Assembly (NCBI GenBank): GCA_965235115.1
Contig: OZ249436.1
Coordinates: forward strand, 33,916,001-33,980,000
Source of the DNA: Laetmonice hystrix
Taxonomy: Eukaryota
Direction: 5' to 3'
Length of the DNA: 64,000 nucleotides
Position 1 is the stretch's first letter, and every line of letters begins with the position of its first letter. This document shows, piece after piece, positions 1-42,820 of the stretch. A model generated the notes under the pieces. It did no database searches. It was not told where the DNA came from and saw only the letters and a program-made list of their open reading frames with translations. Position numbers and translations under genes: made by a program.

Positions 1-3000
1 GACCTTAGCAAGGAATCAAAGGTCTCAAAGCAACCAACTTCTTCACCAAAGAGGACCATGGGGAAGCCCCCAGGTCAGGCGGAAACGGCTTCATCAGTAA
101 AAGAGGGCAAAACAGCAGAAGGAAAGGAGCTAACTGGTGGAGCAGGTCCAAAGGCCAAAACACCAGAAGGAAAGCCTTCATCCGCAGGTCCACAAAGAGT
201 CAAAATTTCCAAGGAAAAGACCCAGGTTGCAGAGTCTCATGTGGCAGGTTCACCCCGCAAAGAGAAGGCACAGATGGCATCACATCAAAATGTTGTGACC
301 CAGCACAAGGTGCCACCTTCACCAGTGAAAGCAGGGAAGTCGCTGCAGGAAAGGCTTACTGTAAATACTTCGCAAAAGGTTGATGATTCAAATGAGAATA
401 AATTTGGTATTACGTCACCTAAACAAACTAAGCCTCCCCAGAAAATGAAAACTGCAACTGAAACAGGTCATGATAAGAAGGCAAAGAGTTTACATCCTTC
501 ACAGGTCCGAGATGCATCACCAAGTATCCAGAAAATAGGAACTCAAGAAAAGACAGACCGAAAGGTGTCAAATTTTTCCACGCCTGGTACAAAAGGGACA
601 GCAGCTTCACAGCAGGACCCTCAGAAATCAACAAAACCTATGACTAAAGCTCAAAAAAGCTCACAAGAAACCAAAACTGCTGAAAGGAAACTAATCACCA
701 CTGAAACAAAGAGACAGGTCAGCCTTCAAGAGCCTGTGGGCAAGTTATTGGATGACGGACTGGCACCGAGATTACGGAGACGGTCGCTTCGGTCCCAGGC
801 CAGCATTGATGAGTCTAGTGAGAGCCTCCCCCAAAAAGACTTGCCCCAGGGCCGGTCGTCCCCAGGAGAGGTGGGTCAAAAGGTTTCACACACCAGACAG
901 AGCCCAGTACCTCTTGAGGTACGGACTAGCTCAGCCCTAGATCTCTGGAACATCCACCAGGAGGCGAAGCTGCATGGTCTGGATCGCAGGCGCAGCTCAA
1001 CCCCAGATGTACACAAACCTGAGCTGATGAGGTCAGCCCAGGCGAGGTACAGTGTCAAAGATAAAGACCGCCCAGAGGATATTGTCACTGAAGCAGCGCG
1101 TATCAGCGCTAAGGAGGCCATGAAAGCACAGTGGCTTCTTTCCCAGCATCAAGAGCAAGAGGAGAAAAAGACTATACCTCCAAAAGATGCTTTGGATAAT
1201 AAAGAGAACGAAAAGGGTGCTGTGAAAAATAGGAAAACAAGCACTTCAGCAGACAAAGACCAGGGTAAGGAGGTCATCATTGGTAAAACTGGCGAAAAGT
1301 TGCAGCCATCAACGAAAGGGGAGTTGAAAGGTTTGGAAGGTACCCCCAAATCACCCCCAAGCACTACCAAAGATACCAAAGCTGAGAGCAAATCTCTGAC
1401 ACAGGACATTCAGAAGGTGGACAGACTTCATGAGGATAAGAAGTCGAGAGAGCAAAAGAGAAATGAGGTGTCAATAAGGGCACCTGCAGTTGAAAAACTG
1501 CTTGATTTTGGACCTTCTCTAGATAGAAGGGCAAAAGATAAAACCCCAACACGAGATGCTCCAACTAAGTTAGTGAGTAAACAGAAGAAGAGCGAGGATT
1601 CTGCAATTCTTTCGCCAAAGGGGGAGACTCCTCCAAGCCGAGTAACCAGCAAATTTAAGGCGTCAGAACCTTCCTCATCACCCAAAACCACCAACAGAAC
1701 TAAGAAGATGGAGACGCCCCTATCCCGGACTGGTGTAGGCAGAGGCAAAGTTTCTCCTCAGGATTCCAGTCCAAAGACTGTTACCAAGGATATGAAAAGG
1801 GATCCCTCAGTGGACAGGTCAAACACTACATCACAGGAAAAAGACAAGAAGTCAGAGAAGAATGCCATAAGGGCCAAAACTATGAATAAAGCGTCACCAA
1901 AGATAACCAAGAAAGATAAAGTAACAGATGTCAAGCGAACTCCACAGGGTGTTCTGCAAAAGAAAATTGAGCCACAGAAACTGAGCACGAGAACAGAAAA
2001 GCACGAAGAGGTAAAGTCTGTGAGTAAAGAAACTCGCATGGCTAGCACTGCCAACAGGGTGTTGACAGCGTTGGTGAAGGAGCCCTCCCAGGATGGTACA
2101 AAGAAGGCCGAGGACAAAGGTGTCCGCACGGCAACAAAGGAGCAGAGGTCAAACATAGGCTCGGTGAGAGAGGTTAAGAAGAGTCCACTGAAGCCAAAGC
2201 TGATCAAGGATTCCAGCAAAGTTGGAGACAGTACGAAATTAGTTGGGCAACGATCGATGAATTCGGCAGGGTCATCTGTAAAGCAGAAAGGCATGCGGAC
2301 AACTACCAGGGTGGAGCACATACACACGTCCAGCTCTAGCACCTCACGAAGCACCACAAGAGTGGAGGAAATCAAAAGTTCCAAGAAAATCAGTTCCACT
2401 TCATTCATGCGTTACTCGAAGATGCCATTCAAAGCACTGCTAGAGCATGGGAGTGAGTACCCAACGGACCTTTCTTCATTGGGCATGTGCAGTTCGTGAA
2501 GTGAGGGATGAGCATGCTCAGTGACCGTTGACCCGGATTTGACTTATTGAGCATGCTCCGTGGCCCGTTCATGCGGTGCCTGTAACCCTAGCATGACAAG
2601 TACAGCTGACAGTGGCATGGTGTCTTCATTTCCAGGTGGTCGTTGCTACATGATCCTTGTTAATATTTATGTTTGTGGCTGTAGAGTCCGTCCACCTCCA
2701 GCTGTTGTTCAATGCATATAGAACCCCCCCCCCCCCCCCCTATAAGTGTCAATTTTACGAAGTGCTTACTGTCAACAACCCACAGTCGATTCCTCTCCTG
2801 TACACTTGCAGATGCTGATCGTCGTACTCTATGACAGAGCCACCAACAAGCACTGTTCCCCCACTTTGTTACTTTATTTTGGATCTCTCAGCACCAGTGT
2901 AGAATTTGTTTGATTTCAATTGATGATTCCACCATGCAGTGCTTTCGATGTGTAAACCAAGATGGTATGCTGTCATAGTTAAGTTTGTCAGTGTGAATAA

Positions 3001-6000
3001 ATCCAGACAAATACCCCGCTTCCCCTGTAAGGTCCCTGTCGTTGTAGATGTTTTAGTAACGCCACGCACTATGTAAACAACACTTAGAAAATCTGTTATC
3101 AGACGACCTCCTCATTACTTTAACATAACACAGAACCCATCTATATGTTACGTATGTAATTTAACAAATATACCTTCATAACCTTACGGGGAAGCAAGAA
3201 TCAACGGTCACAAGTTTAATATACTACAAATTTAATACTAACAAGCCATAGTTCTTTTTCCTATGGCTGCTAAAGCCTGAAACAATTTTAAGACTAGACT
3301 CAAGCCAAATCGCAAATATTTTGTAGTTATATGATCAAAGGTGATTCTTGAGTCGATTGTCAAAGTTGTTTTAGTGATAACACAAGAGCTTGTTTTCTAA
3401 AACTCTTCTATACTGACTGGCTGATGCGAGTCATACTTTATTCAGTGATGGGAGGGAGGGGGCTGCTGGACGGCCTTTCTTTCTAACTCGCTATTTGTAA
3501 TGCATAGGTCTAGTCGCAAGCAAAATTTTGAAGGCTGTGCATGTGGCTGATGGTTCATGCTGCTGTGAATGTCTAGTATTTAAGTTAGGTCATCTAAAAT
3601 TCGTATGTCAATTACCAAGTCTTGGTAAACAATACACATTCTTTGATACATTCCTCAATCATAGATTTGTGATGGGTAGGTTCGGTTCAAGTATAGTAGT
3701 GGCACATACATTCTGTAGCATTGTATAACACTGTAAAAATCTGTTAAGCATTTCTTGAACTGATTTATTCTCAACTGCTAAATAATGTTGTGCACTGTGT
3801 AAGATCATTTGCTATATTTCTTCAACTAAAGTCATGGCTGAACGGTATACTTACTGCACCTCCTTGTTTTCCTGTCGGATGCAATAAAAGGCTTTTTCTG
3901 GGAAAGCTCCTTTGTATTCCCCATCTAGTATCAACCAAACTACCATTCTTTATGTAGCAACCTCAGTCGTGCTGAGCTGGCCTTCTGAAATCTGTTTATG
4001 TGGAAACATGCTCTCTGTTTGCCTCTACTGTTCCAGGTTGTTAAGTCAAACTGCGCCATCACTTTAACTGAGTTGAGAGTTCTTTTAATATGTACAGGTT
4101 GTTTCAGTTGATCATTATTTGGTACTAATGTTTGTTGTTGTTTCTGTGTCAGGTGGAAGAAAACATGCTAGTAAAAAAGACTCAGGAGACGAGAGCGACA
4201 ACTCGGAAGTTGACGACAGTCCAAGTTCACCAAAATGTATGTAGACTGTTTCTTTTTGTGATAATCAAAATTAATGGTCGCTTAGATCCTGTCGCTGCCT
4301 GACAGCATTGGGTCTGTCTTACATTGTTCATCTTTATAGCCTTATAGTAAAAATAACATTGACCAGTGTGTCAGGAACCAATCAGTGACAGCGATTTCCT
4401 CAACACGTCCTACTTTCATTCAAATATCATTTATTGATTTAAAAGGAATTTGTTTCAGTATGTTACAATAGCAGTGGATGTGATTCATACAAAGCTGTTA
4501 TTCACTTGTCCTTCCACCAGATGGAGTACTGGTCATGCCTGGAAAGAAGAATGAAAGTTCTCCACAGAAGTCCAAGAGTTCTTTAAGACAAAGTCCTATA
4601 GAAGATCCTCGCAACAAGCGCAAACATCGCCGGAAAGGTAGCAAGAAACGTCGGGAGGAGGAGAAAAAGTCAGAACACGCTTGGAACGTTTCTGGAACGT
4701 CACAGTGGCAATACCCATCCGACCTCTTAGTGAGAGGAACAATTGAACTCCAACAGTTAGACAGATTTGTTTGCTCAAAGGTAATACTTTCTTTGTTTTT
4801 TTGTTAGTATGAAGGAAGTTGGAGATGTAGCAATTTGTAGATACGGTGTCAGTACAGTAACCTATTTGTCAAATATAATACACAGAAAATAAGTTTTCTT
4901 TTCTTTAACAAAGTGTGGAATATGCACTTAGTCTAGTAATTGCAGGTTAATCATCTTTCCATCAGTAGTTGAAAACTATTAAAATATATTATTATAAAAA
5001 TAAGTACAAATAGGAATACAGAAATGACTACTACAATTGGATATTTGTATTTGTTCACAGATCAGTGAGCTGAGTAAAGACTGTGGACGTCGGGACACAG
5101 TGTTTGATGTGGTTTTCAAGGGAGCCTTGAAGGAATTCTATGCCAACTTGCTCACACACACGTCTGTTGCTCTTCAGGTTTGTACTACACTTTGTACTAC
5201 ACTTGTACTACACGTTAATGAATCCTTGGACTGCGTTTGCTGTTCAAATGTTCCACATCTTGCTTACAGTTGAAAGTCATTAGGGGGGATAGGGATTATA
5301 GAAATGTGAACGTAGAAGAGTTTAACTAAAGCTGTCCCTTATAGTGTTGGTTGAGACTACATTAATGTACCTAACTCAGAGATTTGTTCCCTCGTGCAGA
5401 AACCACAGGTAGAGTTCCGGTATCGAGATCTCATGAGTACTTTTGAAGAGACGCTGAAGGCCCGTGCTCAGGAGAAGGAGTTGGATGCTGACTTCCCAGT
5501 GACCATTGGCATCAACGCCTTCCGAGGTTTCTTAGACGAGTTCAATCGCAAGAAGGAGAACAAAGAGCTTCCAAAGATCGAATTGAAGAAAGAGAAAAAG
5601 AAAAAGGAGAAAGAGTTGTTCTATGTGAGTATTAATGCATGAACCTGAACAAACGCCCTTACACAAAACTGCAAACCCTTTTTCAACGAATCAAAATATA
5701 GAAAAATTCTAGATCCTATCTTAAAGAGTGTAAGGCCTTAAAATATTCTCTTGCATCAAATAAGCACTAGAGTTATAAGTAGATCTTGGGACTTTTAGAG
5801 AGGACATTTAATGTCATATGGCCATTCTGTTGTAGGAACATCTCGGTCACAAGTTCCAGTTGGTTCAGTTCAGTATTCCCACCTACTGCGAGTACTGCTC
5901 TTCCTTCATGTGGATGGTAGAGAAAGGAAACGTTTGTCAAGGTTTGTCATCTTTATCGTAAAACTAGAAAATGTTGCCTCACATCACGCTGAAAACACAA

Positions 6001-9000
6001 TGGCCCAAACTAAGATAATGTCATCAGATCACGAGCACTTTGCTGTAGATGAGGTGGGCATTCTATGTCTCTTATAAGAAATCTCAAAACAAGGGGCAGA
6101 AAATGCGTTTTGATGTGATACTTTTTGAGGTGTACTTGATGTTATCATTGTTTCTGTTTCAGTTTGTAAATACACTGTACATAAAAAATGCTGTAATCAG
6201 TCCTTGATTCGATGCAAGGGGGTATATGGAGACTCGGTGATAGGGGTTAGTATATTCTCACCTTCTACTTTACATCTTTGACTTGTATGTGACTGTGCTG
6301 TTCCTTTTTCACCATCTTAAAGGTCAAGCCAGAGTATATATTTTATATTCTTGTAGTCAGTGTATGTTAATAAGTAGATTTGAATATTATGGTTTATATA
6401 TTACACTAGAAGACCAGAAAAGATGAGGTAAGAATTCAATGAAATGGAGTTTGGATGTTCTTCGTAGGGAGAGATATTGATATTGATATAAGTACATGTA
6501 GTTACATGACGGCCAACCCTTTGTGTTTGCAGTCGCAATCACGTTTATTTGGAGCACGGCTAGAGTCCCTGCTGGATGGGGACCAGAAAGTGCCAGTCGT
6601 GGTCGAGCGACTCATCACAGAGATTGAGCTCAATGGGATCTACACAGTGGGCTTGTATCGAAAGGCTGGGGCAGCTAACAGGGTAAAAATGCTCATCAAC
6701 GCCATCAACACAGGTTTGTACCACACCTTATGTCAGAACCCTGTAGCAAGGTGTCATCCGCTCTCAGACTTTCACTTATATCTGATACTTATGATTCTTA
6801 ACTGGTTTTCATTTTCAGGGGATAACGTCGATCTAAGTGAATATCCTGTGCACGTCTTGACGTCTGTCATGAAGTGCTTTTTCCGTGAAATGCCAACACC
6901 ACTCTTAACATACGAACTCTATGATGACTTCGTCAGGGCAGCAGGTAAATCTTGAGTTAGAAACCATAGTAGGGCTTTTGATTTCTTATATTTGTATTTG
7001 GGTGCTTGCAATCTGAAGGAAGACTAGTGATAATTTAATATGAAAACCAATTTGGCATTGATTGATATTTGATTGCCATATTCCTTCAACAAAGAATGCA
7101 AGCCAGAAAAAAATACCAGAACTAGGAATGTACTGTTAATTTGAAAACTGAAATAACTTTTTTATTTCTACTTCAGAAATCAACGATCACAAGGAAAGAA
7201 TACAGTGTCTATATTCAGTCATTGGGAAACTTCCCCAGGAAAACCTGGACCTTCTTGAACGTCTCATCTTTCACCTTGCAAAGTAAGTGTCCTTGAGTTA
7301 GTTGACTAAGCCTAATCATGTAAAGGTTGGAATTTGTCAAACGTCCTAGTAGACTGGTGGACCCTAGAATGAAATTTGTAACAGTGACGATGAACTGAAG
7401 GAAAAAATACAGGGCTTTCCCCACTATATAATAAGTACACCGGCGGCAGGGCAAACCGACAGGCGGCTTGAAATCCCAAAATAATACACCGGTGGCCTGC
7501 CAGTATACATGTACTTTTTGACCAAGCCTGTCCATAGGTGTTGTGTTGCCTTTATCCAAAACAACTTTTTTTTTTACACTTGAGCTAGCTACTGACTCAA
7601 AGATTCAGATTGGACAGACAGTTTAATTTTACCTAGACATGCTTCAGTATACAGCATTTGGAGTCATATTTTCACAAATTTCTTGGAGAAGACCTCCCAA
7701 CCCCCCTCTCAAACTCTCCAGCACGCACAGGCGAACTATTGTGCTGCATGTGGGGCACCCCCGGTGTCACTTTTCATCCTGAGGAGAACACTGAAATATC
7801 TTTTTCTTTCCACAGTGTTACCCAACATGAGACATACAACAAAATGTCAGCGAGTAGTTTAGCTATAATCTTTGCACCAAGTATTTTACGATCACCTCGG
7901 GAATTACCGGCACAACAGAGTCTTCTACATGTTCCCAAGCAATCCATGTGAGTATAAGTTTGTTTCAATGTAAGTTCAACTAGATTTCGGGGCAGCCAGG
8001 CCTCGAGAATTTGAGAGGAAGATAGGTGGAAACGTCATTTCATACTTGAAATTTGGTTGCTTTCATATGACCGACTGAAGGTTTTTTTATATCGATAAGT
8101 CCAGCATAATACATGTACTTGCATATTTTTGGTCTGTGATTTATTTTGTGATTTATTTTGTTTCAAATGTCAGGTGTTTGCAAAGCATTATTGAAGAGAA
8201 AGTACAGCATATCCGGCACACATTGGCAGACATCAAAACACTGGACACTGCCACTGCGTCAGCCACGGTCCGGCTGGACATCGTCAGGGCCAGTATGCGG
8301 GTCATCGGCAGCAAGGTACGCCAAGCAATTACTACCTCAGTTCTCCACAAAACATGTACACTTTATATACCGGGGGTACTTGGAACGTTCCAGGCAATTA
8401 GAATTGTAAAATCCTGACAGCTGTTGGCAGTAGCATAGCATACCATTATATCAGAACGTTTGTTTGTTATCTGCAGGGTGAGGACGGAGAGTTGGAAGGA
8501 GCTTTGTGTACGGCACCGATTGAGGAGGGTGAAACTCAACGAACAGAGGAAGTACACATCCTATCGGAACAGATCCGCTCATTAGAACAAGAGAAGTACG
8601 TGGCCCTCTCATTTTGCTCGCTCGGTAAAGGTTTAGGGATGTGAAAGATGAGCGTGTCAGTCTAATTTTGAAACGGTTTTTAACTTACTCCTGTGTAGGG
8701 TCATAAAATTCTCACTTCGAATGCAAGTTGAAATGTACATGTACATTAACTCAGTACAATTTAGGCTATCGGGAACTTGTCATCTCTGCATGACAGTTTA
8801 AAAGATATTAAGTGGACTGTATTGGGACAGTTAACTGATACATTTATCGTTGAGATATCTACTGTTAGTGATTTATCCTTCACGTAATCCATACAGAGAG
8901 ATGTTAACACTACGGATGCCAGCGTTGGAGTGCAGACACAGTAGTTCGGAGGAGGATATGCTCAGTACGGACGACCTCGACTCGACCGGGGATGAATTAG

Positions 9001-12000
9001 ACGACGCCGATGACAATTATGAGGAATACGCTGTCACCTTTGACCTTCCAGGTAAAGCTTCTTCTCTGTTACTCAGATAACACCGAAATGTCGAGTGGAA
9101 AATGTTAACTTGAGTATCCATGTTGTATTAGTGATCGGTTTTTTCCTGGCTTGGCGTGGGCAATGTATTGTCATTTAGATTGTGGAATGGTGACATGAGT
9201 GGAAGTTATCACAAATATTGTGGTTTACTCTCAGCCGTTGGACCGAGAGCTTCATTTCATTGTTATTATGAATGCTTAAATCGTACTCATCAACTTGATA
9301 ATAGGAAACTCTATTATTCCCCCTCCCCCTCCCCCCGCCCCCCCCCCCCCCCCCCCAATTATGCGTGCTATTTTATGATGGAGTTCAGGATTTGTACATT
9401 GATAGAGGATTCAAGAACCATTTCTTCAGCCTTTGAAGAGGTACTTAAAGTACCGGTAACCATCACACGTCAGGACTTGGAGGCATTCTTTCTAGCATTT
9501 CAGAGTCCTTTAATGCTAAATTCATAACGTTGCTTATAGACACGTCGCAACCAAGGCAGGATTGAACTACATGAGGCCATTTCCCCAGTGACCATCTCAC
9601 CATCACTGAGTGTTAATTAAACTCCACAAAGAGAAGAGTTGCGGACTCAGCGACACTGAAGAAAATGTAGATTCTCTGTACAAATTCAGGAGTTCATTAA
9701 ACGCCTTTGCATGTATATTTTATGCTGTATATTGTTTAAACATGTCAAGTTGATTTTTTCTGGCAGCAGTGATGATTGCACTAACAAAGGTTGGCTTCAC
9801 AGTTAGCTGGTGGGTTTTTTTTCTCCCCCCCCCCCCGATATACGTATGTAAACGCGCACATATATGTCTCTTTATTCCTTTAGCTAGAAGATATTAAGTA
9901 CTCACAAGTTGTGTACAATTTACAATGCTGAGCTTTTTCTTTACTTTATTCTCCGACCTTAACAAAAAAATACTGACGATGGGTTTTATAGTCTATAGTT
10001 TGTAGGCCTTCGTTTCTGCCTTAGTTTGAAGTTGTTTATAGATTTGTGAAAGGCTTGAATACAATATTGGTGACGCGCTTTCCCCTATTTGTGGCAGGTC
10101 TTCGTTTCTCTAGTACTCGCGTGCCCATTGTGGTGCGGTCTGGCCACAGGCGTGGTAGGTTCATACCGCCGCCACCAGGGGGTGGTGTCGACGTATGCCA
10201 CCAGGTGGCGTGCATTACTAATGGCATGCTCTCAGTGGATGTTGCTGGTGAGGTACCGGTACTGTTGAAGTCCCGTAGAAGCAATCCCCCCCCCCCCCCA
10301 CCGCCCTTAGAAAAACAAAAAAATATGCGTCGGTGACCCACCATCTCCAACCCCAGGGGTGCATGAAGTGTGCTGCATCAACCGGTTTGCTAACCAAGTT
10401 CGGCTATCCACAAGTCCGTCTTGTATCACTTCCAAAAATTTAATGTTTCATATGGGAATGGTTTCATAAGTCAGCTATATGGTAACGTGCTGACTACTGC
10501 AATGGGTCGATGTACTTGCCAAGACCTGCATGCCAGACTGTAGACGGAATCAGTTTGAAAAGAACATCCAAAGTATACTTTTTGAGTTCACAGATGCTTT
10601 AGAAATCGGTAAAAATAGTGTAGTCCTTGTCAATTTTGCTTATCAACTACAGACTTACGGGGCTTCAAAGCTTGGACTAGATAGATTGCCCTGTAAGAGA
10701 CCTAGAAGGGGTGGGGAAAGAATTTCCAGACATAAAATAATGTGACTTACAAATAGGTATATCTGTCATAAAATCAAAATATTGAGTATATGTACCGGGG
10801 TAAGTGGCGGTATTTGAAGAAGGATCGTGAAAGCAGAACTGAACACAGAATGTTGACATGATTACGGGTGTATCGTTGGCCAGTAGTAAAGTAGAACTTT
10901 CATGTTGTCTGGGAAGTCATCCAAAGATTTCCAGGCGGCTGACACAGGCTCAGGGAACAGAATGTACTGTAAGTGCCATGGGTTGGCAAAGTTACAGTGC
11001 CAGGGGTCGTTTACTGAGAGCAGCGGCGGCGATAGAGAGGGAGAGAAGCCTGGTTGGTTACCGCAGGTGAAAGTGCAGCTGTACAGTAGAATACCGAGCT
11101 CAATAAAATCTAAATTTGTTGGACCCACCACCTCCTCCTTTTTCCATAGCCCCCAGATCCTGGGTCCGCCGATTAATGTTTTTAAAAAAAAACGCAAAAA
11201 AAAGATGCATACGAGTTGATAAGTATACAACTGGATTTTATGGGAAGTACCGCTGCTATTGAATATAGAATACCCGTTACATTGGAGGGGAACATTTCAA
11301 TGACCGAGCCAGCCGATGTCAGCAGTGGGTAGCAATGAGATACGAGGGTTTGTTAACCGCATGAAGGAGATTGACATTTGAAAGCCTGCAATATTAAAAT
11401 GAATGCTTCACATTAAGCTACACTAATCAAACCGTTGTAATAGCGCACGTAGGGAACATATTGCGATGTGATGAATAGGTTGATTGAGTCAGTACCATCT
11501 AGTGGGTAAAACCTATAAAAACAGTGCCCATGTCAGGTGTCGTAGCAATTAGAGGTTAGACCACCAAGTCGAAAGGTGATTTAGCATCACCAATGGGTAT
11601 CAAACTTTTGTTTGGCCTTGAGGTGTAGTAACAAACGAGCTGCACCCGTCGAAACATATTTTCATCAGTTAAACTAAGTGTTTAATAGATTAGATCTGAC
11701 TTTATAATCTTGATGAATGTGGCATTTGCATCATAACTTGTCTTGCAATGCATGTGGAATCGGAAAGAATGGTATAACATTTTGATACATAGTCCAGTAT
11801 GTTATCAACAGAAAGCTAAATAGATGGATGGCTACTACTAGTAACAAATCACGGTAATCTTTTAGAGTTTAGAGAATCATTTCTGAATATAATGTATCGC
11901 TACCAGTGTGTACATGTCTCAGTTCTTTCCCATCCAAGATTGCCTTTTTCGTTTTCAATGGTGTAAGGATATTATATGTAATTTACCAATAAAAACAGTA

Positions 12001-12546
12001 GAGGGCCATTGACAAGTACTGGTATGTGGTTTGACTAGCCTGACGGAGATATTGATGTAGTAGAGATCTTCCCATGGTCGAGTCCTGATAGTGTTGTTGG
12101 TTGATACTGTGGGCTATACTGCATGTTCTGGAGAAAAAGGGCAGGTCTAATGGGATAGGTCATGTCTGCTTCTCTTCCTATTTCAGGTAAAACTTTTTGG
12201 AATTTAAGATTTCCCCTTGGTACCATTGTTATCCATACTCTTAAAACGAGATAATATTCTGTTGCAGTATTGTTCTTTATATTTTTCGTCCGGTACTGAT
12301 ATTTAAGTAGTTTATTATCGTTATTTTTCAGCTGTCAGTCCACCAAAGAATTTGAGGCACTTGAACAAAAACCGGGCCCAGATGCCAGTGCGTCGACTGC
12401 CGTCGTTAAAGCGGAACTCATCGAGTGAGACGACAGACGACGAGGCTGGACCGTCAGGGTGTGCGGGGTCTGGGGGTGCCACCGCCAGACGTCCTGTACT
12501 TACTACTCCCAAGTTAAAACAGGTCGGCGAGGAGATCATTGTATGA
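1..12546 (+). CDS. MYO9: Unconventional myosin class IX, 3' part (tail, C1 domain, RhoGAP, coiled coil); the 5' end and motor domain lie outside the window
   Basis: GT-AG exons that join in frame: <1-2452, 4153-4236, 4521-4780, 5061-5177, 5400-5624, 5836-5941, 6163-6236, 6533-6713, 6819-6944, 7177-7282, 7816-7947, 8174-8315, 8477-8595, 8897-9051, 12332-12546 (stop). They encode a C1 domain (HKFQLVQFSIPTYCEYC...CQVCKYTVHKKC), a RhoGAP with an intact arginine finger (GLYRKAG; NKMSASSLAIIFAPSIL) and the Myo9-type pre-C1 segment (ELQQLDRFVCSK...DVVFKGALKEF). Confidence 0.88.
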
Positions 12547-15500
12547 TGTCATCACTATCATCACCGCCCGGTCCGGAGGTTGGGGGGAACATGGTGACCG
12601 GCAGGCTTTATGGACATTTTAACTCTTGGGGTTTTCATGTGGAACGTCGCCAGAGAGTCTACGTGGACAGGCACAACTTGGAAGTCGAGGTGGTTGTGTG
12701 TGGACGGCAGGGCGGCAGATATCGGTGCTTCGGTTCAGGGGGGTGGGAGTGCAGGGGGGGGGGGGGGTTATGTCTCATGCTTGTGGAGCCTAGGAAACCA
12801 CCTACGTATTCCACGGCTTGCTGCGTGTAGTGGCTACAGCAAGCTAGAACATGCTTATGGTGCTGTGTCGGGTCTGGGGTATTCGGCTTAAAAGCCTTCG
12901 ACAGACCTTGCATGTGTCTGGTTAGTCCAGAAACTAAGTAAGTTACGTGAACCGTGTTGTTGAGTATGGCACTGCCATTGCGGTTTGGTAAAAAAAAACC
13001 AAGCTAGTAGAATGACTGTGTGGTACCTAAATAAAGAACTGGAGCTGGGTTGTTTGTACGGATATGTAACCAAAATTATGGCAATACATCTCACATGGTC
13101 TGGTAAGGATAGATGCCAAAAGTCCAAGTGAGTTATTGTTTTTATAGCCAAACGGATACAATTTTCAGACCGGTATTACGGGGGGGTGGGGGGAATATGT
13201 GCCGACAATAATATCACTTTGAAATGAAAAGCTGTATAAAAGGCACTTAATCGGTTGATTTCTGTCATTGTCAAAACGTTTACTGTTGCAGTATGTCGAT
13301 TTACAGTGATCTTAAATCTTAAAGTGTGATACAAGAAACTAGGTCCCCGGTAATGCGTACCTAGGCTACCTAGAAATGTTTTGAGGAAACGAGGTCTCAA
13401 ACCGATGGTTTCGCGACGTTATTTCATTGATGGCAACGCAAAACCAGATGGAGCTATTTTGGGGGCAAGCATAAACATTTCGTATTACAATGTAATTTTT
13501 TCATTAGGCCCTATGGCCCATTGTGATACGTTTGTGTATGATATTAGGATCAGTGGCTAACAACGTTCAATATAGTGCAGGATGCCCGAGTCGAACATCA
13601 CCTACGCTTCACAAACTGTTAAATGGCCCATGCATGATCATGTGAGATCCTCTATTGTAGGTTTTCTTTTTCTTGCATAATCTTAACTTGACAAAGTGTT
13701 GTCAGTGTGGCACGAGGACTGCCTCAGTCAGCGGAGGTGACAGTAACGTTACTGTTGGCACTAGAGACGGTAAACTACACGTCGCCACATCTCATTAACC
13801 GGGGCTCTTCATGGTCGAAAGACTTCCCTAAATGAACCTGCAGATAAGGTTTTCTTCTCGTTTTTCTTATCTATATATTGTGGACTTGTCTCTTAACGGT
13901 ATAGGTGTTGTAGTTGTACAGGCTCAGCAAGAAATGTGTTGATGCGGTTTAAAGGAGAGCTTGTCGGTTTTATTTTAAGGGCTATTTATAGTAAGTGTTC
14001 CGTATTTCTAAGGTCAGTTGAAAAAAAGTGAATTTTTAACTGCAGTGTTTAGGATTCTGATGTTAACCATATAGGATCGTGTCGTATTTTCTGTTTTGGT
14101 GTTTCAGTAGTAGAAGACTTGTCGAGACCTCAGACATATGCCTACGATTCGGGCATGTAGCTGTTTTATGTACACATGTATATACCAAACCTTCTGTTCG
14201 GTAGGAATCCTTAGTAACTGAAGGTTTAAACTTGCCTTCACTGAGGGACATTTTTCTGGTTCTTAAAAAAAGCTTTGTGTACTATAACCAGTCGGTCTGC
14301 ATGTGTTGTTTGATTTACCCCATTGCGCTGCATTAAGTAACCAAGGAAACTCTTAAAGGTTCACCTGGCATTTAATTGTTGGGTCCGTAACCATTCTGCT
14401 GTTTACTGTCTGGCTTACCCTGACGTGCTTTCCGTGTCGATGATGTGTCGAAAACTCCCGGTTGTTCGTGATAAAAATACATGCAAGGATATATCAGCTG
14501 AAACTGATAGCCACACGTCTGCAGGTTCTACTGAACGGGGGCGTCATGCAACCTCAGCCGTGTCTCGCTACCAACTGATAGAGGGATTTCTATTTCTATT
14601 CTTTTTGTCAGCCGTAAGGAATCACTATTAAGATGATCTATCCTGGAAAATGATTACTCTTTTTTTTAAATAATGAAACAACCCTAAAAGTTACCAGTGT
14701 TGGTATGTATGGATGGCCAGATGGAAGGGCCAGGCGTTTGTGGTGGTGAACGTAACAGTATTTTTCTCCGGCAGAGAGCGCTGGTGTCTTCCGGACGGTG
14801 GGCCCTAACTCTGTATTATTACCTGTCGGTCTGCCGCTGTAGGCAGCTCGGGAGCTTGCCCAGGGTTAGACTCGCACTGTTATCATTCACCAGTTCTGTG
14901 ATAGAAACAAAAAAAAGTGAAAGTGCAAAACGATACTTTTTCATCAACATGTTCACCGTTTCGTTAACCTCCCTTTTCTTGTTGTCTATTCCCTTATTGT
15001 AACCGCGATTTTGATCGCGTTGCGGTTCCGGTAGGGTCATAGAGGGGTTGTATCCTTTCTCTTGGAGCCGCCGCCTATTGTTTTACCGTTGTGTAACATG
15101 TGACAGTTGGACTCTGGGCTGTTGCGCCTCATGTCTACACTATAATGACATGCTTGACCTATTGGTATATTGAGGTCTACTAAAATTCAGCCGTAGGATC
15201 TATTTACGGGCGTTTGGTAAGCACAGGTCGCGTGTTCTGTTCGTTGATACGCTTACCAGTCGATGTAGATTAGGGAGCGGGTGACAGTCTCGAGACTCTA
15301 GGGTGATTTCAAGAACCTCGGTGGTTCTGCTACCAAGCCAAAGTAGACGTACATTGTCTGGCCAATTCGTATTATTTCTCAGGCCTGAAAAAGGAATTTG
15401 GTTTTAAAAGATTGTTAATGACACTATACAAGTTAGATATCGTGCTGCACATAGTTGAATATGTAGAGTCCCATGTTTAGGCGATTCCTATTTGAAAACA

Positions 15501-17067: not shown

Positions 17068-20000
17068 TCAGTCGACTGCCAGTTTCCTGAAGGACCCCAC
17101 CATTCCCCAGCCACCCGCCGCGTTGTCCACAACCTTGGCGGGTCGCTTGCTCTCATCGATTCCCAGAGTGGCAGCGTTCAGTTCGAACTCGGTTTTATTC
17201 TTTATCAGCTCCTCCTTCCACGACTCTGTAGCAGGTAGAAAGAGCAAGGTTTATCGGACAGAAAGGTTTTTTTTATAATCATTACAGACGGTACGGTAGG
17301 GTCTATACAAAGTCTTGCTCTCGCCGAATTGACAGGTAACAAAATGAGGCGAACAAAAAAGTGAAATCATAAATCAAGGGCTCCTATATATTCCAGGTGT
17401 CGGTGAAGGTCAAGTTGTGACTAGATCTAACTTCATACCTTTCGTACCAGTCAGAGCATAGCCTTTGCTTGAGTTAAAAAAACTGGATCTCTGGACCTTT
17501 GAATATAGACTAACGCATAGCGAATGATTGTAATGGTAAACTTACTGGCCAAATCAGCAATCGGCCCAGCCTCACCGCCGTATTCCGTCGGTAACATTCT
17601 CTTTGGTACTTCCACATGAAGGGATTCCAGCGATGACTTGTGAAAGTGGAGCTTTAATAAAAAAAAGCAACTATGTTCTACTTCTTACGATCAAGTAGGC
17701 CCCACAGTAATCATGATTGGAAGAGCATCGCCAGCTGAATTTGAATTTCAAACAAACATTTAATCTGCACACATACCCGTCGTTTAGTCTTCTCTTTCAT
17801 GAAGTACTTGCACAATTCCATGAAACCGTTGAATATAGTTGGTGTATCATAGTAGTTGATTGCTTTGTTTCGTGTAGGATATACATCCTGAAAAATCACA
17901 CATCGTTTTGACAGATAGGCTATTATTTTCACCAGATCCTCTCCACAAGGTATTATAAATTGGTACTCAACAGCCTGAAGGTAAGATTAACGGGGAAGTA
18001 TAAAGAAATTTGTTTATGATTTGATCTGCCAGTAGGTTGACACTACCGCATCAACCGTCTGATTTAAAAATACGCCTGATCATTTCCGTAAATAAGGGGG
18101 TATGTTCGTGCTGTAAAGAAATCATATTTTACTCTTCCTAATCAGTTGAACAAAATCGTTCACGTTTGATGAAGATCTACGTTTGGGCTTCAGAGGTCAT
18201 CAACCGGTACACCTAGATCTGTACTCACCTGCCAGCACTTCATGCATTTCTGAAGGGTGTCCATGTTATAGACCAGAAGATGCGATGCACTGAACAGGCC
18301 GAAGTCGAGGACAACCACAATACCATGAACTTGAACATATTCGTCTTTCAGAATGACGTCAGATAACATGAAACCTAGCTTCATGACATCACCGTAGTAG
18401 TGTTTATTTGGGTCGTATGCTCCTATAACAGTTGAGAATTGGTAAGCTTTCTTCAGGTTTTTTGATTACTTGAGAGTTGACTTGAGAGCAAAGGTGTACT
18501 TTGAATCCTATGTTTTTTAATTTACAGGTCTACACGCAAAGGCAGCCCAATCCTCGGGATTATGCTGATCACATGTTAAAAAAACCATTTCAATTGTAGA
18601 CCAAATTCCGTAAAGTGCATAGATTACCAATTCAATATCTGGTGTGAGAGGATATAATCTTACCTGTTCGAATGAGAAGAACTTTTCTCCCGTTGTCATC
18701 TCTGCCCGGAAGTGGTACACTTTGTCTATTGATACAAATAAATTCATCTTTAAACACCTTGCAAGGTCGAAAAACCTAAGTAGATGTAGTCATGGTCCAG
18801 TAGCGTACCCAGGGAGGGTGCTTCGGGTGCTCAAGCACCCCCTCAATTTGCCCATTTTTTTGCGCTTGTTGCCCACAGCCCCTCCCAATTTGCAGCGCCT
18901 AGGACGTTGGTTATTTCCAGCACCCCCTGGCCTGGGTACGGTTTCTAGGTAGGCCTACGCCACTGTGCTCCATGTAATATGGAAGGTTGTTACCGAAGGT
19001 TGTAACATGGTAATTGTGAGGAATTATTTTCCTGTTGGTTCAATAGATCTAATCCTATTATATAAATTTACCCTCTCCTTTAAAAAAAGTAATTTTGATT
19101 GACATTCCACCTAAGGAGGTAAAACATGAAAAAAAATAGAATTCTTTATTTAAACACATAGGCCTACACCCTAAATGAACTCACATCAAATCAAGGAGTT
19201 CGCTCAAGTTTGGGGCGAGAGGATCCATCTTGTCAAACCAATCTGGTACCCCCTGCGTCTGACTACATCGAACTGTGAGAAAGTTGTCAATTTTCTCCTG
19301 GGCGCGGAGCTGGCTGAATTTGGCGCAGCGCAAGAAACGCAACAGGAAGTGGTCATCTGAAAGGGAAGTTGTTTCAGAGTGAGAAAGCCGGGCAGTTTAG
19401 AGAAAGTGTGGCAACAAGTATTTTGCACTTTTATTGTCCGTTTAGACGAGAGACGTGGCTAAAAGTACTTACACTAGTATGTTTGCCAGAACTCTACGGA
19501 ACCAAATAAACATTTTTCGGTAAAACCTTAAATCTGTCCATACTCGCACACGCAAAATGGGGGCGATTATATGGTGACGCAGAAAGCTGCTGGATATGGC
19601 TTTCAGAATTCGTCAAAATCTCGGGTCAGGCGACTAGGGCCACTGGACTGTTATGGAACTCTGTCCCATAACCATACCTATACATATTTTTATACATTGT
19701 TTTATATTTGTAGTAACATTAACGTCTACACACGGTATGCATGCGCCTCACTTCGAACATGTGTTTATTAATTAATCTAGTATGTCCGCACGGTCCGGGT
19801 AACTCTTATGTAGGTCAATCACCCTGGCCCTACTTTCTGTAATCTGGAAATTATAAATAGGGATGATGCTCAGCAGCTCGCTCTCTCGCCCTCCAGCCTC
19901 CATGGGACACACATGGTACACACACATAGATAAGTCTTTGCCATCCGTTTCTTGTACTGTATTGTTTGATATGTATTGTTTGCCATGTACGTAGGCCTAT

Positions 20001-21381
20001 GTATCAGGACGCCTACTTTGTATATGGGATGAAACTGTGAACGTAAATGAAACATGTAAGTTAGATTGAAAGCCAAGTTTGTCATCATACCGCTTTATGT
20101 AGACCGGCCCTAGTCACCTCTCGCTTCCCCGCTTTGTTCCCACCATCAGCTTAAATCCTTATTCTTAACCATATGGTTCCTGCATTCCCCCCACACAACC
20201 GTAAGCCCCCGCCCCCCCCCCCCCCCCCCCCACACACACAACCCTATAATAGCTAGGACTATATATAGACAGAAGTTTACACATATTTATAGTTTCTGCT
20301 TCCGTGGCGGTGGCCTAGTGGGCATGGATGTCGACACGCTATGCGAATGGGTGCAGTAATCTTAGGGCCTGAGTTCGATTCCTGTAGAGGACTATACAAC
20401 TTTTCTCTTTAGGGACATTGTCAAAGTAATTGGGTTACCCCTGATGCCCGTGCATTTCAAAAGAAAAATACAATCACTCGAGTTTATCGAAAGTTAAGGA
20501 CTATATATAGACAGAAGTTTACACATATTTATAGTTTCTGCTTCCCTGGTAATCACACAATCACTCGAGTTTATCGAAAGTTAAGATAGGTACCTACCCT
20601 ATATACTATAGTACGTATACAGCCACGTTTAGGTGTATATAATACCTAATGCATTACCACGCTCGTATGGCTCAATCCTATTATTCATTTACGTCGATAT
20701 ATAGGCCTACTTGACGGTGACAATTTTGATGCTCAGTCCCTTTTTTGAACTATAAAATTTGTCAGAAAGATTCCTTCACAGAAGGCCATTTGCACTAACA
20801 GTGGGGAATCCAGGGGAGGCACCTAAAAAAAATTATCCTGCTACGTTCGGCATGATTTTATTGTGATTATGGCCATTTTGGGCCCCTTTTGGTCTATGTC
20901 AATGCTGCATGGCCCAGAGTTAGGCCTGTTGCTCCTGGATGAGTGAGGAGGCCCTAATTTTGGGCCCGATGTTACTATCACGTACACAATATAGGAGGCT
21001 TTTTAAAATAAGTTTGCTGAAATCCTGGTTTCAGGGTCCGAATAATACATCTTCTTTTAAAAAAAGGTTGGGGAAAGGAGAATTTAAGGGGGGCGGGCCC
21101 CTTGCCCCCCCCCCCCCCGATCCCCCAGTGCACTAACTATATGAGCCCTTTACTCGAATACATCGCGGGAGTCAGTTATCACTAGTAGGGCCTCGAGGTC
21201 TATATCGCAACCTATTTCTTGACCTACCTGTTCGGCATTTCAAATGGGGCTGAGCCTTCACCCACTGCCGAAAGGTTTCAATGTGCGACGCTCGCTCCTT
21301 GGGGTCCTCGTTTAGCTCCTCTTTGGCTTTCTTCTGTGTCTCCTCGTCCAACGTGCACACATACGTGCCCTCTCCCGACAT
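17068..21381 (-). CDS. CRAL-TRIO (Sec14-like) lipid-binding protein of the alpha-tocopherol transfer protein/clavesin/RLBP1-like group, 318 aa, complete
   Basis: Seven in-phase exons: 21381-21228, 19356-19185, 18725-18664, 18422-18229, 17887-17777, 17651-17546, 17225-17068 (957 nt). Motifs: AKEELNED, DDHFLLRFLRCAKF, LPGRDDNGRKV, QVHGIVVVLDF, LPTEYGG and the C-terminal GSFRKLAVD*. Confidence 0.95.
18797..18965. mobile_element. Short MITE-like insertion in a CRAL-TRIO intron
   Basis: Terminal inverted repeats CAGTAGCGTA ... TACGCCACTG around a GC-rich non-coding core. Confidence 0.5.
20304..20470 (+). mobile_element. tRNA-derived SINE
   Basis: Pol III A box TGGCCTAGTGG (20311-20321), B box GTTCGATTCC (20373-20382) and an A-rich end. 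It does not form a full cloverleaf. Confidence 0.65.
20799..21130. mobile_element. MITE-like insertion
   Basis: Imperfect TIRs CAGTGGGGAATC ... GATCCCCCAGTG. TGCACTAAC occurs at both junctions. Confidence 0.55.
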
Positions 21382-22018
21382 CTTTAATCTGTTTATAAAT
21401 ACTGGTTGATGGGTTGAAAGGTGGACGTTAGAAAGTAGGTAGGCCTACTGCATTAAAGCTGTCGACAGCACCAGTCCTGTTGCACTGCAGTGTTGAGGGT
21501 CTGCCTTTCCACGTCTCGAGGCCAACATGCTGGCCAACAGAGATAACACCGGTCCGTGTCGACTACTTCTTGGAGCTCTATGGAGTGCCATTGGAATATT
21601 TATTCACCATTTGCTAGACTAAGGCATCAAATTGTTGGGAGATGCTTTCAAACCGAGTAAATATACATTTCTGCTCGAGATAGGCCTACAGGCCAAACGT
21701 TTCTTTTTTCCTGCCCCCTCCTCATTTCTTCCCTCTTCTCTCTCCAATCCTTCTTTCTTAGGCCTACCTATAACTAGAAGTAAAACAAGTGCATATACTA
21801 ACTGTAGAGTATAGCGTGGGGCAAGGCACACCCCCGAGTAAGACGCCCAAGTGGCATAATATCGCTTATAATAATTGGCGTTTTCTAACAGCTTTATGTG
21901 CGACCGGAGGACGTCACGTCCGACCAGAGCTACGTCATGCCAGTTTTCCGGCGAATACATGTAGATCAAAATGATTGTTTTTGCCCCTTTTAAATCTGAA
22001 AAAGAGAGACTATATGTT

Positions 22019-28400: not shown

Positions 28401-30420
28401 GTTTGTGACCTGCTACATACCTGGCACCAGGTCCTGACAGATACCACCTGTCAAGGACAGTAGGTTTAACCAAGACTGGGCAAGAGTCCGTCGGACTACC
28501 ATTGATATATTTTCACAAGTCTGAAGCAATAATAGGCAGGTCCCGGACCTGGGGCTAGTGGATTTGTCCTACCCTGCCCAAATTGAAGTCTTGTTGATCC
28601 ACATCCCACAAATAGATCACCAGGTTTCACAGTCAGTGAATTAAGAAGGAACTTTTCATTTTCTCATTGAAGGTTTTCTGTATAGAAGTGTATGACCATG
28701 GCAGGCGACGTCTTATAGAAAAGCGATACACGGAATTCGAAGATCTACACAAAAAGGTAATAACCAGGTGTTTGTGGCCTAATGAAAATTTAAATCCTAT
28801 GTGGGTGCCATTGGATCGGGTATAATTTCGTGATCAGCCATAAGGTAGCTCTAGCAAACTGGCATTCATGATCCGTGTAGAAAAGAAGGAAAAAATAGGT
28901 AAATTTCCCTCCCAGTTTCACTGACACCATTATGATAGAATTGACTTGTCTGTAAAGAGTAATGATGCCGATATTGCTAGAATTGTAAAAAAAAGTAACA
29001 GGAATTGTCAGAATGGACACGTTCGCCTGAACACGGATGGACTAAATGACTACCGGGTATTCTTTTGTTTGTTATTGCAGCTAAAAAAGCTTATATGGAC
29101 CCCAGAATTTCCTCCAAAGAAGGTTCTCAAGTGGAATCACAAGATTTTAGAACATCGGCGCCATGGGTTTGAGGTATACTTACAGGTAGGCAGCTTAAGG
29201 GGAAGGAGGACCGTAAAATTTCAGTAGTAAACTTTGACATTTTTTGAGTTTTTTCCATTTATTACCATGTTAGCATCACATAATCACCAAAAAAATGATA
29301 TGCTTCCATGCTAATTTTCGTAGTATGGGGGTTTTTAAACTGCCCCCTCCCTGAAAATATGACAAATTCTGACGCACTTCCATGTCTCGTTTCAGGCAAA
29401 AGAAATACATCAAATAATATCAAATGTATATTTTTTTTTACCTAGAAGGACTGAAATGTAACATACCTACCACACTGTACTAAAAAATATGCCGATTAAA
29501 CAATTTTTTTTCAGATTTTGTATTTTTGCCGAGGTGATTGCATATATTTTTCATCGTAAAATCCCACCTTTTTCAATAACAGGAGAAAACTGGTAGTAAA
29601 TGTTATATTTTTTTTGGCTAAAATTAAAGACAATGACCAACTCTCATCAAATCAGTAAAAAAAAATATACCATTCCAGGGTAATTTTTTTGGTAGGACCC
29701 CTTTTTTGTAGGAAATTTACCCATTTTTACCCAAAATTCGGGTTTTTTGCTCCTACAAACTAATTAGTGGTGAATGTATTTATACCGTTTTGGCCTATAA
29801 TTAAAGATAATGACCATTTTCATCAAAATAAACTAAGACATCTGTCATTTCAGGTAAACGTGTCCCTGTGACCACCTTTTATGTTGTTGAAAAGGGCCCC
29901 AAATCACCCCCCCCCCCCCCCTTTAGCTGAGTGACTTTGCCGAGTGTGTTGAGTGGAGTGAAACTTGAGTGTAAGAGAAACCGGGCCCTGGCAGATGGAG
30001 ACACTGGATTTGTGACTGCTAGTTCTTGTCTGTGCCACTGGGGCGCCACTGTAGGCCTACTATGCGCGTAAACCTGCGCAGTGGTCTGATTTGCTTCGGT
30101 GCTCCTTCCCCTTAAGTCATTTTCATATACTTTGTACAGCCAGGTCTCATTAATCCATGGTTTTTGACCCCTCACAATCCCAGAAAGAGGCCACTTAAAA
30201 TTGTATTGGAGCAAATGCAAGAAAGTATGTGGAAAATGTAATGATCCAACTCTTTTCATAGATAAAGTATTAATCTGGTTTCACTGTCATTTTATTGAGG
30301 TATGATGACATAGGTATTCAAACATTTATAGGGCTTGCTAGACCAGCACCAAGATGCACCAAGACCTCTTCTCCAGTTTCTTCAGGTGCACCCTTCTGAG
30401 TCCAGGAAATCCTCCTTTGA
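25471..30420 (+). CDS. SNX24: Sorting nexin 22/24-like PX-domain protein, exons 1-4; the terminal exon(s) were not found in the window
   Basis: Exons 25471-25533, 28673-28756, 29081-29185 and 30332-30420 give MVRVTVPSYRKVGGEHERSFT/VFCIEVYDHGRRRLIEKRYTEFEDLHKK/LKKLIWTPEFPPKKVLKWNHKILEHRRHGFEVYLQ/GLLDQHQDAPRPLLQFLQVHPSESRKSSF. This is colinear with the SNX22/24 PX domain as I recall it. Confidence 0.88.
26293..26752. mobile_element. MITE in SNX24-like intron 1
   Basis: TIRs CAAGCCTCGAATTA ... TAATTCGAGGCCTG, with internal repeated GTGCCC motifs. Confidence 0.6.
29199..30111. mobile_element. Non-autonomous TTAA-targeting DNA transposon (Kolobok-like) in SNX24-like intron 3
   Basis: TTAA on both sides (29195-98 and 30112-15). 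TIRs GGGGAAGGAGGACCG / CGGTGCTCCTTCCCC match at 14 of 15 positions. Confidence 0.75.
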
Positions 30421-31728: not shown

Positions 31729-32320
31729 CCAGTATGACAGGAACTGAGCTAAGTAGTGGAGCAATATACCAGTAGTTTAGTACGGTCTGGTGTATAGACG
31801 CGTTCATAGGTAGGTTTTTTCTTAATGTCAGGCCCATAGAGTAAAAATGGTACATGACGGGGGTGGGTCAGATGACCATAGATCACTCCTTGATCGCACC
31901 TCCTAGGGACGTAGGCTAACGATGTAGGGGAGGAAATTTGTCTCGGTTGTAGTCCCATCTAGGGGCCTGTTGTAAAACCGCTTGAACGTGCTGGTTGTGC
32001 CCCACCCGGCTTAGTACTTACTGCATGATTGCAGTGATTGGTACCTGTGTCCAGTGAGCTGTGCTGGTTGAGGCGTGCCGGCAGGAGTACGCCGTTTTTT
32101 CGTTGTGGTTCATCAATACACTCGTGAATCTTGATTTTTTCACTCAATGACGCAATTCAAAAACTTCACAAACTGTGAATAAATATATATCAGTTTATAT
32201 TCTTTATTTGTTATCAAAAAGGCATTAAAACCTGATAAAAAGTGACATACTGTCCCAGCAGTTCCCGTTAGGACCCGGGATAAAATAGGCCCCTTTCAAT
32301 ATATTCTTTTTACTCTGTTT

Positions 32321-33099
32321 TCACCATGAAGGTGGCCCTTCCATTACTCGCTCACTCACTTCCTGTCCCGTATGAAGCTCCATTGTCCAGTAATGACTAG
32401 AGGAAATAGAGGCATTTGCTGTCTGTTTGTCCATCAGGTCTGGGAGGCGTGCGAACTGCTGGGGGTCGATGGCTTGAGGTGAGGGAGAAGTTAGCTGCAC
32501 CTCCCCTCTGCCCATAGGAGTGTTTAGGATCTTCTGGATGCTGGCTGGTGTTGTTGTGATGAGAGCCCTAGCGGCAGGCACCATATTGTTCAACGCAATG
32601 TCCACCATTTTGTCCTCTGAGAGGCCAATATGTGTCCCCTCTCGACGTATCCCCTTCAGGAATGCCCGGATGTCCTCCCCGTGCCTCTGTTTACGGGCAC
32701 AGAGAGCGTTCTCCAAGTCCCAGCGTTGTGTTACATTGGGTGTGAATTTCTCCTTCAAGGCGTCCTTCAGTGCCGCAAAATCATTTTTGACCTCATCAGT
32801 CAGATGCACGTACCACTCCGATGCCACATTTGGGCCAAAAAACATAGGCAGCGTGGTGGCTAATTTTGCCTGTGTTGTCCATCCTTTCCCGCTGGCATGG
32901 ATCTGGAACTGGGTCAGCCAAGCTGATACATCCATCCCTTCTCCGAAAGCCGGCAGTCGGGAACCTCCCAAGAAGCCATTCTCTCCGTTAAAGTGTTTAT
33001 GTTCTCCATGCCGGTGTCTGGCTGAGGTGTTCTCGATCTCAGATTATGAGCATGACCGAGTGATGATGATGGACGTGAAGCTTTACTCATGAATGCCAC
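32321..33099 (-). pseudogene. Ty3/gypsy-type gag (capsid) remnant
   Basis: ORFs 32914-33099 and 32321-32971 join across one frameshift: HNLRSR...LPAFGEGMDVSAWLTQF...ASEWYVHLTDEVKNDFAALKDALKEKF...RKQRHGEDIRAF (capsid/major-homology-like). A PBS-like TGGTGGTAGAACCCG lies upstream near 33203-33217. Truncated at the 3' end by a LINE tail. Confidence 0.7.
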
Positions 33100-38795: not shown

Positions 38796-39258
38796 AGAGG
38801 AAACAACACTTACTATTGCAGATTACCGTGGGCCCAGTGGGCCTGCTGCCCGGGGCTGAGGGTCAGGAACCCTTCCAGGTCCTCCAGGCCGCCCAGCCCT
38901 GGCGATGGGGAGGGTGCCCGCCACCATTGGCGGTGATCCCACCTCCTCTCCCCCCGCGGAGGGCACAGTCGCCCGGGGTCGAACGGTTGCCCGGCGTCTT
39001 CCCCTCGCTCCCCCGGAGCGCGCTGCCCGGCTGGACGCCGCCTCCCGCAGGTCCGTGATATACGCCCAGGCCTGGGGCTGGTAAGGTATCACGACCGCCG
39101 GCACGTCCCCCTACCAGGGGAACGGGACGCTTAGCATTATGTTAAAGCAGTCCCCTGCGTTGCTTTCACGGTAAGAGATCACAATCTCCTTCTTCGTGCT
39201 GTTAAAACATATTAAGGGTGTTGCCCCGGCCATAGTTGATGTGTGACTGACCAACGAG

Positions 39259-42408: not shown

Positions 42409-42820
42409 TCGAATACCCATTTAAGCCAACAAAACCCCAAACAAAGGCCGATACACCACCATAAAAGGTCGTGCCAGAGTGGTTGCGTCATCCTGGTCTT
42501 GTGCCAGGGCCCCCATACAAGGGCCCCCATACAGACGAAGAATTTTCCTTCTTTAAAGACTTGGCCGGCCCAGTTGAGCCGGCCAGCCACCCGTTGAAGT
42601 GTCTTTTTACTGGCCGACTTGGCCGCCAGTAGGGCTTGTAAGTCCTCGGCCAGCCCTTTGATTTTGTCGGTGGGGAGTCCAAGTGTCATGGTCTGGCTGT
42701 TGATGTTAATCCCCAGGAAGGTGATTGCTCTCGCTGGGCTGATAACCTTGTTATAATTAATGCTGAAACCCAGCTTTTTGCACAGTGCATTTAGGGTTGT
42801 GATGCAGTCTTCCTTGGTGT
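42409..42820 (-). pseudogene. DIRS/Ngaro reverse transcriptase C-terminal fragment
   Basis: LGFSINYNKVISPARAITFLGININSQTMTLGLPTDKI...KKTLQRVAGRLNWAGQV...DLLWW. Confidence 0.8.

Follow-up and report, generated by a model that had tools for sequence, protein, structure and literature searches.

In its last two exons, a class IX myosin (Myo9) gene of Laetmonice hystrix encodes a short element that we take, with a probability of roughly 0.8, to be a capping-protein-interaction (CPI) motif, predicted to bind actin capping protein (CP), lying in the unstructured C-terminal tail of the protein and inherited from before the origin of animals. It is likewise very probable from these comparisons that ancestral Myo9 coupled a barbed-end-directed motor, a RhoGAP domain and a CP-binding CPI motif. 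By the strict pattern the element is no textbook member of the family; it is probably a conserved and functional motif of the CPI type. With it, class IX myosin joins the proteins that are likely to bind capping protein.

The host gene

The window analysed here is a stretch of 64,000 nucleotides of L. hystrix DNA, and all positions refer to it. In this window, 14 exons from 4153 to 12546 form one open frame with GT-AG borders, and addition of a large first exon gave a 15-exon model which is open for 1492 codons. Its parts upstream of the element are as follows.

1..5624, forward strand: upstream tail exons (15-exon model)
5836..6221, forward strand: two C1-domain exons (Pfam PF00130; tblastn)
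6533..7947, forward strand: four RhoGAP exons (Pfam PF00620, E 3.4e-18 and 6.2e-7)
8174..8595, forward strand: two helical or coiled-coil exons following the GAP (tblastn; long helices modelled in homologue P0198)

The window exons were collinear with a scorpion Myo9 down to the motif in tblastn searches. The C1 region showed 67% identity by tblastn, and its first exon matched half of the PF00130 domain (E 7.5e-5, with a score below the gathering cut-off). The order of C1 domain, RhoGAP domain and coiled-coil tail, collinear with Myo9, is that of a class IX myosin, an identity which rests on the tail because the motor is encoded before the start of the window; RA, motor and IQ regions are present in homologues of full length. 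The closest Myo9 proteins compared were those of Owenia (closest overall), Haliotis and Octopus, an affinity that points to a spiralian. A fragment of a CARMIL or CD2AP gene was rejected as the source of the motif, since the window exons are collinear with Myo9; a CSI motif after the CPI, and PH and LRR regions, by which a CARMIL is recognised, were not found, the upstream exons coding for C1 and RhoGAP. A reading on the reverse strand was also rejected, as nothing motif-like was present there.

Some further observations were made on this gene and its surroundings. A single exon at 1-2452 (forward strand), which runs off the window edge and is therefore at least 2452 bases long, encodes at least 817 residues rich in Lys, Ser, Thr and Glu in frame with the Myo9 tail, an unusually long low-complexity insertion. 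The 105-base RhoGAP intron at 6714-6818 (forward strand) is free of stops in frame, so that both of its exons can be read as one frame. Exons of a CRAL-TRIO domain gene at about 17450-21450 (reverse strand; weak PF00650 match at 18193-18465) are convergent with Myo9, and exons of a small PX-domain, sorting-nexin-like gene lie at about 28640-29224 (forward strand; Pfam PF00787). Long frames at about 32300-33050, 42300-49200 and 57600-61500, mostly on the reverse strand, resemble, by eye, gag and reverse-transcriptase parts of retrotransposons. Adjoining retroelement pieces, two overlapping long frames of 402 and 248 codons at 39247-41146 (forward strand) look envelope-like by eye, being hydrophobic near the N terminus and having a membrane-like segment at the C-terminal end.

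An element probably split between two exons

Judged from homologous proteins, in which a front part runs directly into the core, the conserved element is about 35 residues long and crosses an exon junction, and is thus longer than first noted. The features of this region are as follows.

8897..9051, forward strand: exon coding for the acidic stretch found ahead of the motif in Myo9 tails (tblastn; splice model; conservation)
9018..9051, forward strand: front part of the element, the final 11 codons of that exon, acidic with a Tyr and then Phe-Asp-x-Pro (profile; conservation)
9052..12331, forward strand: putative phase-1 intron splitting the element (GT at 9052, AG at 12330-12331, frame kept)
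12332..12546, forward strand: coding portion of the terminal exon (stop codon 12544-12546; tblastn; acceptor scan)
12352..12402, forward strand: CPI-like motif core, 17 codons (translation; CD2AP CPI matches in the PDB; conservation)
12529..12543, forward strand: acidic-hydrophobic C-terminal pentapeptide ending in Val (C termini of Myo9 proteins compared)
13030..13035, forward strand: candidate polyadenylation hexamer past the stop (pattern match only)

We infer that the terminal exon is spliced to the exons of the Myo9 tail, as had been proposed at the outset: the junction is in frame with GT-AG borders, and homologues run through it. In the Myo9 of a centipede, an abalone and an amphioxus and in two further Myo9 proteins the front part continues straight into the core, the junction-spanning homologues being P0014, P0126, P0139, P0141 and P0198. 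Eleven acceptor candidates lie in 9052-12400, of which that at 12332 gave the longest continuation in phase (70 aa), and the terminal exon matched the scorpion Myo9 tail with 57% identity over 30 residues (tblastn, E 0.001). When all six frames of the 64 kb window were searched with a profile of homologues, described below, two frames came up, that of the terminal exon at E 7.5e-7 and that of the exon before it at E 1.5e-5, and no third frame rose above the inclusion threshold; the front part alone scored 20 bits. Millipede and snail Myo9 gene models (P0024 and P0169) end just past the front part, which is expected with an intron at the same place. The last exon is probably missing from these two public gene models.

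It is scarcely probable that Myo9 transcripts omit this exon always or for the most part, the gene having a shorter end in 9500-9700 or the terminal frame being a product of chance. Within the putative intron there are ten further acceptor candidates and, at 9616 and 9696, ATTAAA hexamers, and one Lineus isoform is without the motif, but the five junction-spanning proteins, the collinear match to the scorpion tail and a C terminus like that of other Myo9 proteins all argue for joining.

As predicted, the terminal frame (stop to stop, 12307-12546) closes with the pentapeptide EEIIV. Such an acidic-hydrophobic C terminus was common to most Myo9 proteins compared, including the insect proteins and vertebrate Myo9a, in which the CPI-like element is missing. 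It may be a PDZ ligand; among the literature matches listed for a PDZ ligand at the end of Myo9, there was no mention of Myo9a. A word-based search with the terminal exon gave 46 candidates, none at E<=10, and a search of the ESM Atlas gave no usable match.

Comparison with the CPI consensus

Translation of 12352-12405 on the forward strand agrees with the 18-residue peptide quoted in the original prediction, and among 40 of the 47 sequencing-run differences listed none falls within these positions. The core contains Leu1, His3, Arg8 (12373-12375), Arg14-Arg15 (12391-12396) and Pro17. CapZIP and FAM21 have Asn at the consensus Thr position, and a Phe-Asp element is found upstream of the core in both.

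The strict CPI consensus, as given in the available part of PMC5491179, is LxHxTxxRPK(x)6P. The claimed agreement with it held for Leu, His, Arg and the last Pro (4/7) and failed for Thr, Pro and Lys, which are replaced by Asn, Ala and Gln, while the claimed spacing stood in full, with Arg14, Arg15 and Pro17 aligning without gaps to CD2AP. None of 37 Myo9 tails matched the strict consensus, and the window peptide fails it as well. The relaxed core pattern of ELM (LIG_ActinCP_CPI_1, printed in PMC11321040) was passed by three of the 37 tails (Capsaspora, Oscarella and Mesorhabditis) and by the protein P0206; the window peptide fails here too, with Gln where Lys, Arg or His is required. The invariant central Arg, seven residues past Leu, is present as Arg8, and so is the late basic pair followed by Pro which is a trait of CD2AP and RavB. 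A CSI consensus was not found on reading the translation of the terminal exon.

Resemblance to capping-protein ligands

When 40 window residues were compared by phmmer with 177,635 PDB sequences, three matches were obtained at E<=10. The best two were CPI peptides of CD2AP (E 0.021 and 0.046), aligned without gaps, and the third was unrelated (E 1.3). A phmmer search of the PDB with the whole of P0198 matched RhoGAPs and no CPI peptide.

We also built a profile from 13 homologous Myo9 stretches, leaving out the window sequence. Since its members were chosen for the pattern Leu-x-His/Tyr-x4-Arg, the profile is biased towards CPI. Against the PDB it found 11 sequences at E<=10, namely ten known CPI carriers (three of CD2AP, one of these a CD2AP-twinfilin chimera, one of CKIP-1 and six of CARMIL1) and chain C of 9BLI. 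This entry was deposited by PMC12865202, the available portion of which describes a RavB peptide that binds the CP stalk through three arginines and has decapping activity; judging by its motif, chain C is probably that peptide. Chain C is without the consensus Thr and has Arg-Ala-Gln as in the window, so the three departures of the window from the consensus do not exclude binding.

Pfam CARMIL_C or CAP-ZIP_m was matched by seven of the 13 homologue stretches (best E 3.4e-5 and 0.0022, the scores shown being below the gathering cut-offs), and the CAP-ZIP_m matches reach over the front part of the element. The terminal frame of the window, searched unspliced, had no Pfam match. The joined window element scored 52.9 bits on the homologue profile, on which most members score 54-73 bits. 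A resemblance of this kind can fail, since a candidate motif in yeast Inp51 seemingly did not bind CP, as far as the accessible text of PMC10651396 tells.

Conservation of the element

The motif has been kept from Capsaspora to amphioxus, so the first of the three refutations foreseen in the original prediction, want of conservation in orthologues, did not come about; nor did the second, an exon apart from Myo9, and these were the two that were run. In 19 chosen homologues, four of them with an eroded motif, the central Arg was aligned in all 19, Leu1 in 17, the last Pro in 16 and His3 in 15; in the front part, Pro was kept in 18, Asp in 14 and Phe in 11. In Myo9, conservation is also good at Lys6, at Pro12 and across the front part, and the consensus positions Thr5, Pro9 and Lys10 are variable, with Asn at the Thr position in three of the 19 and Gln10 in none.

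Mean identity of these homologues to the window was 0.50 in the core, 0.40 in the front part and 0.39 in the GAP end and coiled coil, falling to 0.06 on the 3' side of the core. The tail had been described as disordered, and 71% of the residues in the exon 3' of the motif are indeed disorder-promoting. In the model of P0198, a homologue from which the unstructured setting of the window protein is read, pLDDT is below 50 over 237-290 and secondary structure is absent from 245 onward. With core identity high against its flanks and the tail modelled as unstructured, the comparison indicates that selection maintains the motif as an island.

A loose pattern, drawn up once the sequences had been seen, matched 26 of 294 proteins, each time at the motif site, with no other occurrence in 411,021 residues. 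It turned up in 13 of 74,000 shuffled tails and, when the terminal exon was shuffled, in 26 of 200,000 cases. A chance match was rejected on the strength of the PDB matches, the shuffles and the six-frame profile search.

Selection of this kind could also be acting on a Myo9 linear motif for another partner, one that is CPI-like in looks only. Examples would be an intramolecular contact (with motor, GAP or acidic stretch), a site for nuclear import or for a kinase, or a basic patch for membrane binding, and they would suit a basic motif that is preceded by an acidic stretch, fails the strict and relaxed patterns in the window, and is variable at Thr5, Pro9 and Lys10 but well conserved at Lys6, at Pro12 and in the front part. 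We consider such a partner quite unlikely, since the best-kept features, Leu1, His3, Arg8, the late basic pair and the last Pro, are the hallmarks of CPI, all PDB matches of the profile are CP ligands, and the canonical Arg-Pro-Lys or Arg-Pro-Arg is seen in the homologues that are most distant.

Distribution of the motif

The CPI-type motif was present at the same tail position in Capsaspora owczarzaki and the sponge Oscarella pearsei; in the nematodes Caenorhabditis elegans (HUM-7, with Tyr for His3), Mesorhabditis and Gongylonema (His replaced); in the molluscs Haliotis and Plakobranchus; in the deuterostomes Strongylocentrotus purpuratus and Branchiostoma floridae; and, among arthropods, in Centruroides, three mites and the centipede Strigamia. 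It was eroded in ticks, the crinoid Antedon and Owenia, and missing from one Lineus isoform, the lobster Homarus, every named insect, a hagfish, both lamprey proteins and fish Myo9b, in a sample outside which lie full tails of cnidarians, choanoflagellates, tunicates and human. From this distribution the motif has apparently been lost several times, and the Capsaspora and sponge copies suggest that it predates the origin of animals.

Most of the Myo9 sequences compared do not have the motif. A score of at least 20 bits on the profile was reached by five of the 120 best matches in an arthropod-rich set, the named ones all being arthropods. Of 147 new representatives, 77 that have no coiled-coil anchor and 22 whose tails are short were excluded; 11 of the 48 long-tailed proteins reached this score, but this count is circular since the 11 are profile members. 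Sequences outside the profile that scored were the window (52.9 bits), Panonychus (37.4), Gongylonema (35.1), two scorpion-type proteins (24.8 and 22.7) and P0206 (13.6).

Two observations lie to the side of this survey. P0206 is a divergent C1-RhoGAP protein of 509 aa with a near-canonical LxHxTxxRPK at the same tail position. Cobra and frog Myo9a (P0211 and P0152) have a Leu-x-His-x4-Arg stretch further downstream, scoring 2 bits, which is a candidate remnant; the stretch was absent from two other Myo9a-like tails.

Repeated losses elsewhere, as seemingly in ticks and the crinoid, raise the question of whether an ancestral Myo9 motif binds CP and the Laetmonice copy is weakened or heading for loss. 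Its three consensus substitutions, a Gln10 seen in none of the 19 homologues and the eroded motif of Owenia, the closest Myo9 overall, would agree with this. On the other hand, the window scores 52.9 bits, near the 54-73 of most members although it stands outside the profile, is spaced as in CD2AP, retains all three arginines, and has its Arg-Ala-Gln in common with chain C of 9BLI; a weakened copy therefore appears very unlikely to us.

Relation to known systems

The element shares with the CPI motifs of CD2AP/CIN85, CKIP-1, CapZIP and FAM21 the Leu-x-His, the central Arg, the late basic pair with Pro and the CD2AP spacing, as well as an unstructured setting and island-like conservation. It differs from the CD2AP type in its host, a motor with a RhoGAP domain and not an adaptor, and in the substituted Thr, Pro and Lys. 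The RavB motif of Legionella (PMC12865202, available portion; 9BLI) is also non-consensus, Leu-x6-Arg-x6-Arg-Arg-Leu-Pro. It attaches to the stalk of CP, has decapping activity and agrees with the window in Arg-Ala-Gln, but it is a bacterial mimic with a spacer one residue longer.

Control of CP together with a GAP is already known from two systems in the accessible literature. In Dictyostelium CARMIL-GAP (available text of PMC9270954) a Rho-family GAP and a CPI motif reside in one chain and are both functional; unlike Myo9, it is a motorless CARMIL scaffold (PH, LRR and dimerisation domain) with an inserted GAP, whereas Myo9 has its own motor and a C1 domain and is missing the CSI motif. In the SH3BP1-JACOP-CD2AP-CapZ system (available text of PMC3514035) a Rho-family GAP and capping protein again form a module of dual activity, but they are linked in trans via CD2AP, while in Myo9 the link would be built in.

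Vertebrate MYO9A and MYO9B and C. elegans HUM-7 have an orthologous C1-RhoGAP-coiled-coil tail and, according to the available part of bioRxiv 10.1101/325274, a barbed-end-directed motor. In the vertebrate MYO9A/MYO9B tails examined the element was missing, with at most the cobra and frog Myo9a remnant, and in HUM-7 it is present with Tyr for His. C. elegans hum-7 has known morphogenesis phenotypes.

The original prediction knew of no described link between class IX myosins and CPI, and we found none in the literature searched, outside which lie most subscription journals, supplements and the ELM instance list. The lists of CPI proteins in the portions of literature covered name no myosin. The terms 'myo9', 'CPI' and 'capping' did not occur together in the texts as far as they were available, and the capping-protein papers that touch on Myo9 make no link there. 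The word 'capping' was not found in the available part of the HUM-7 preprint (bioRxiv 10.1101/325274). Other literature in scope, likewise available in part, was bioRxiv 10.1101/2020.02.06.936211, PMC10881157, PMC10651396, PMC8728146 and bioRxiv 10.1101/2025.06.17.660173. HUM-7 may already be listed in interactome tables, such as those of worm capping protein.

Proposed mechanism

By binding to the stalk of CP, CPI motifs weaken capping and free CP from V-1 (available parts of PMC13004031 and PMC9270954), and Myo9 moves to barbed ends, its GAP lowering Rho activity (bioRxiv 10.1101/325274, available part). On our model, the element of about 35 residues would wrap around the CP stalk, and its three arginines would contact acidic CP-beta residues in the way known from the complexes of RavB and CD2AP. 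Myo9 would walk to barbed ends, lower Rho activity there through its GAP, and either bring CP along or free it from V-1/myotrophin in a moderately active form. One Myo9 molecule may in this way both damp Rho-driven elongation and tune capping.

Binding of CP is better supported than uncapping. If CP is bound, our judgement leans towards recruitment of CP or exchange with V-1 as the outcome; net uncapping appears doubtful, and it is unlikely that CP mainly serves to anchor Myo9.

For the family as a whole, we are somewhat inclined to believe that the holozoan ancestral Myo9 was a motorised CP regulator, which carried CP to barbed ends and turned Rho off there, and that the motif was lost independently in insects and vertebrates, its job perhaps passing to adaptors of the SH3BP1-CD2AP-CapZ type. 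The losses in these best-studied animals would then explain why the motif went unnoticed, and a myosin would bind capping protein directly. CPI proteins decide the site of CP action, and the literature, so far as it was available, names adaptors, scaffolds and twinfilin among them. Borne by a barbed-end-directed motor that also has a RhoGAP domain, a CPI motif would mean active delivery of CP, with Rho shut-off and end capping tied together in one chain. The Capsaspora and sponge copies would date this arrangement before animals, and its repeated loss may serve as a natural comparison.
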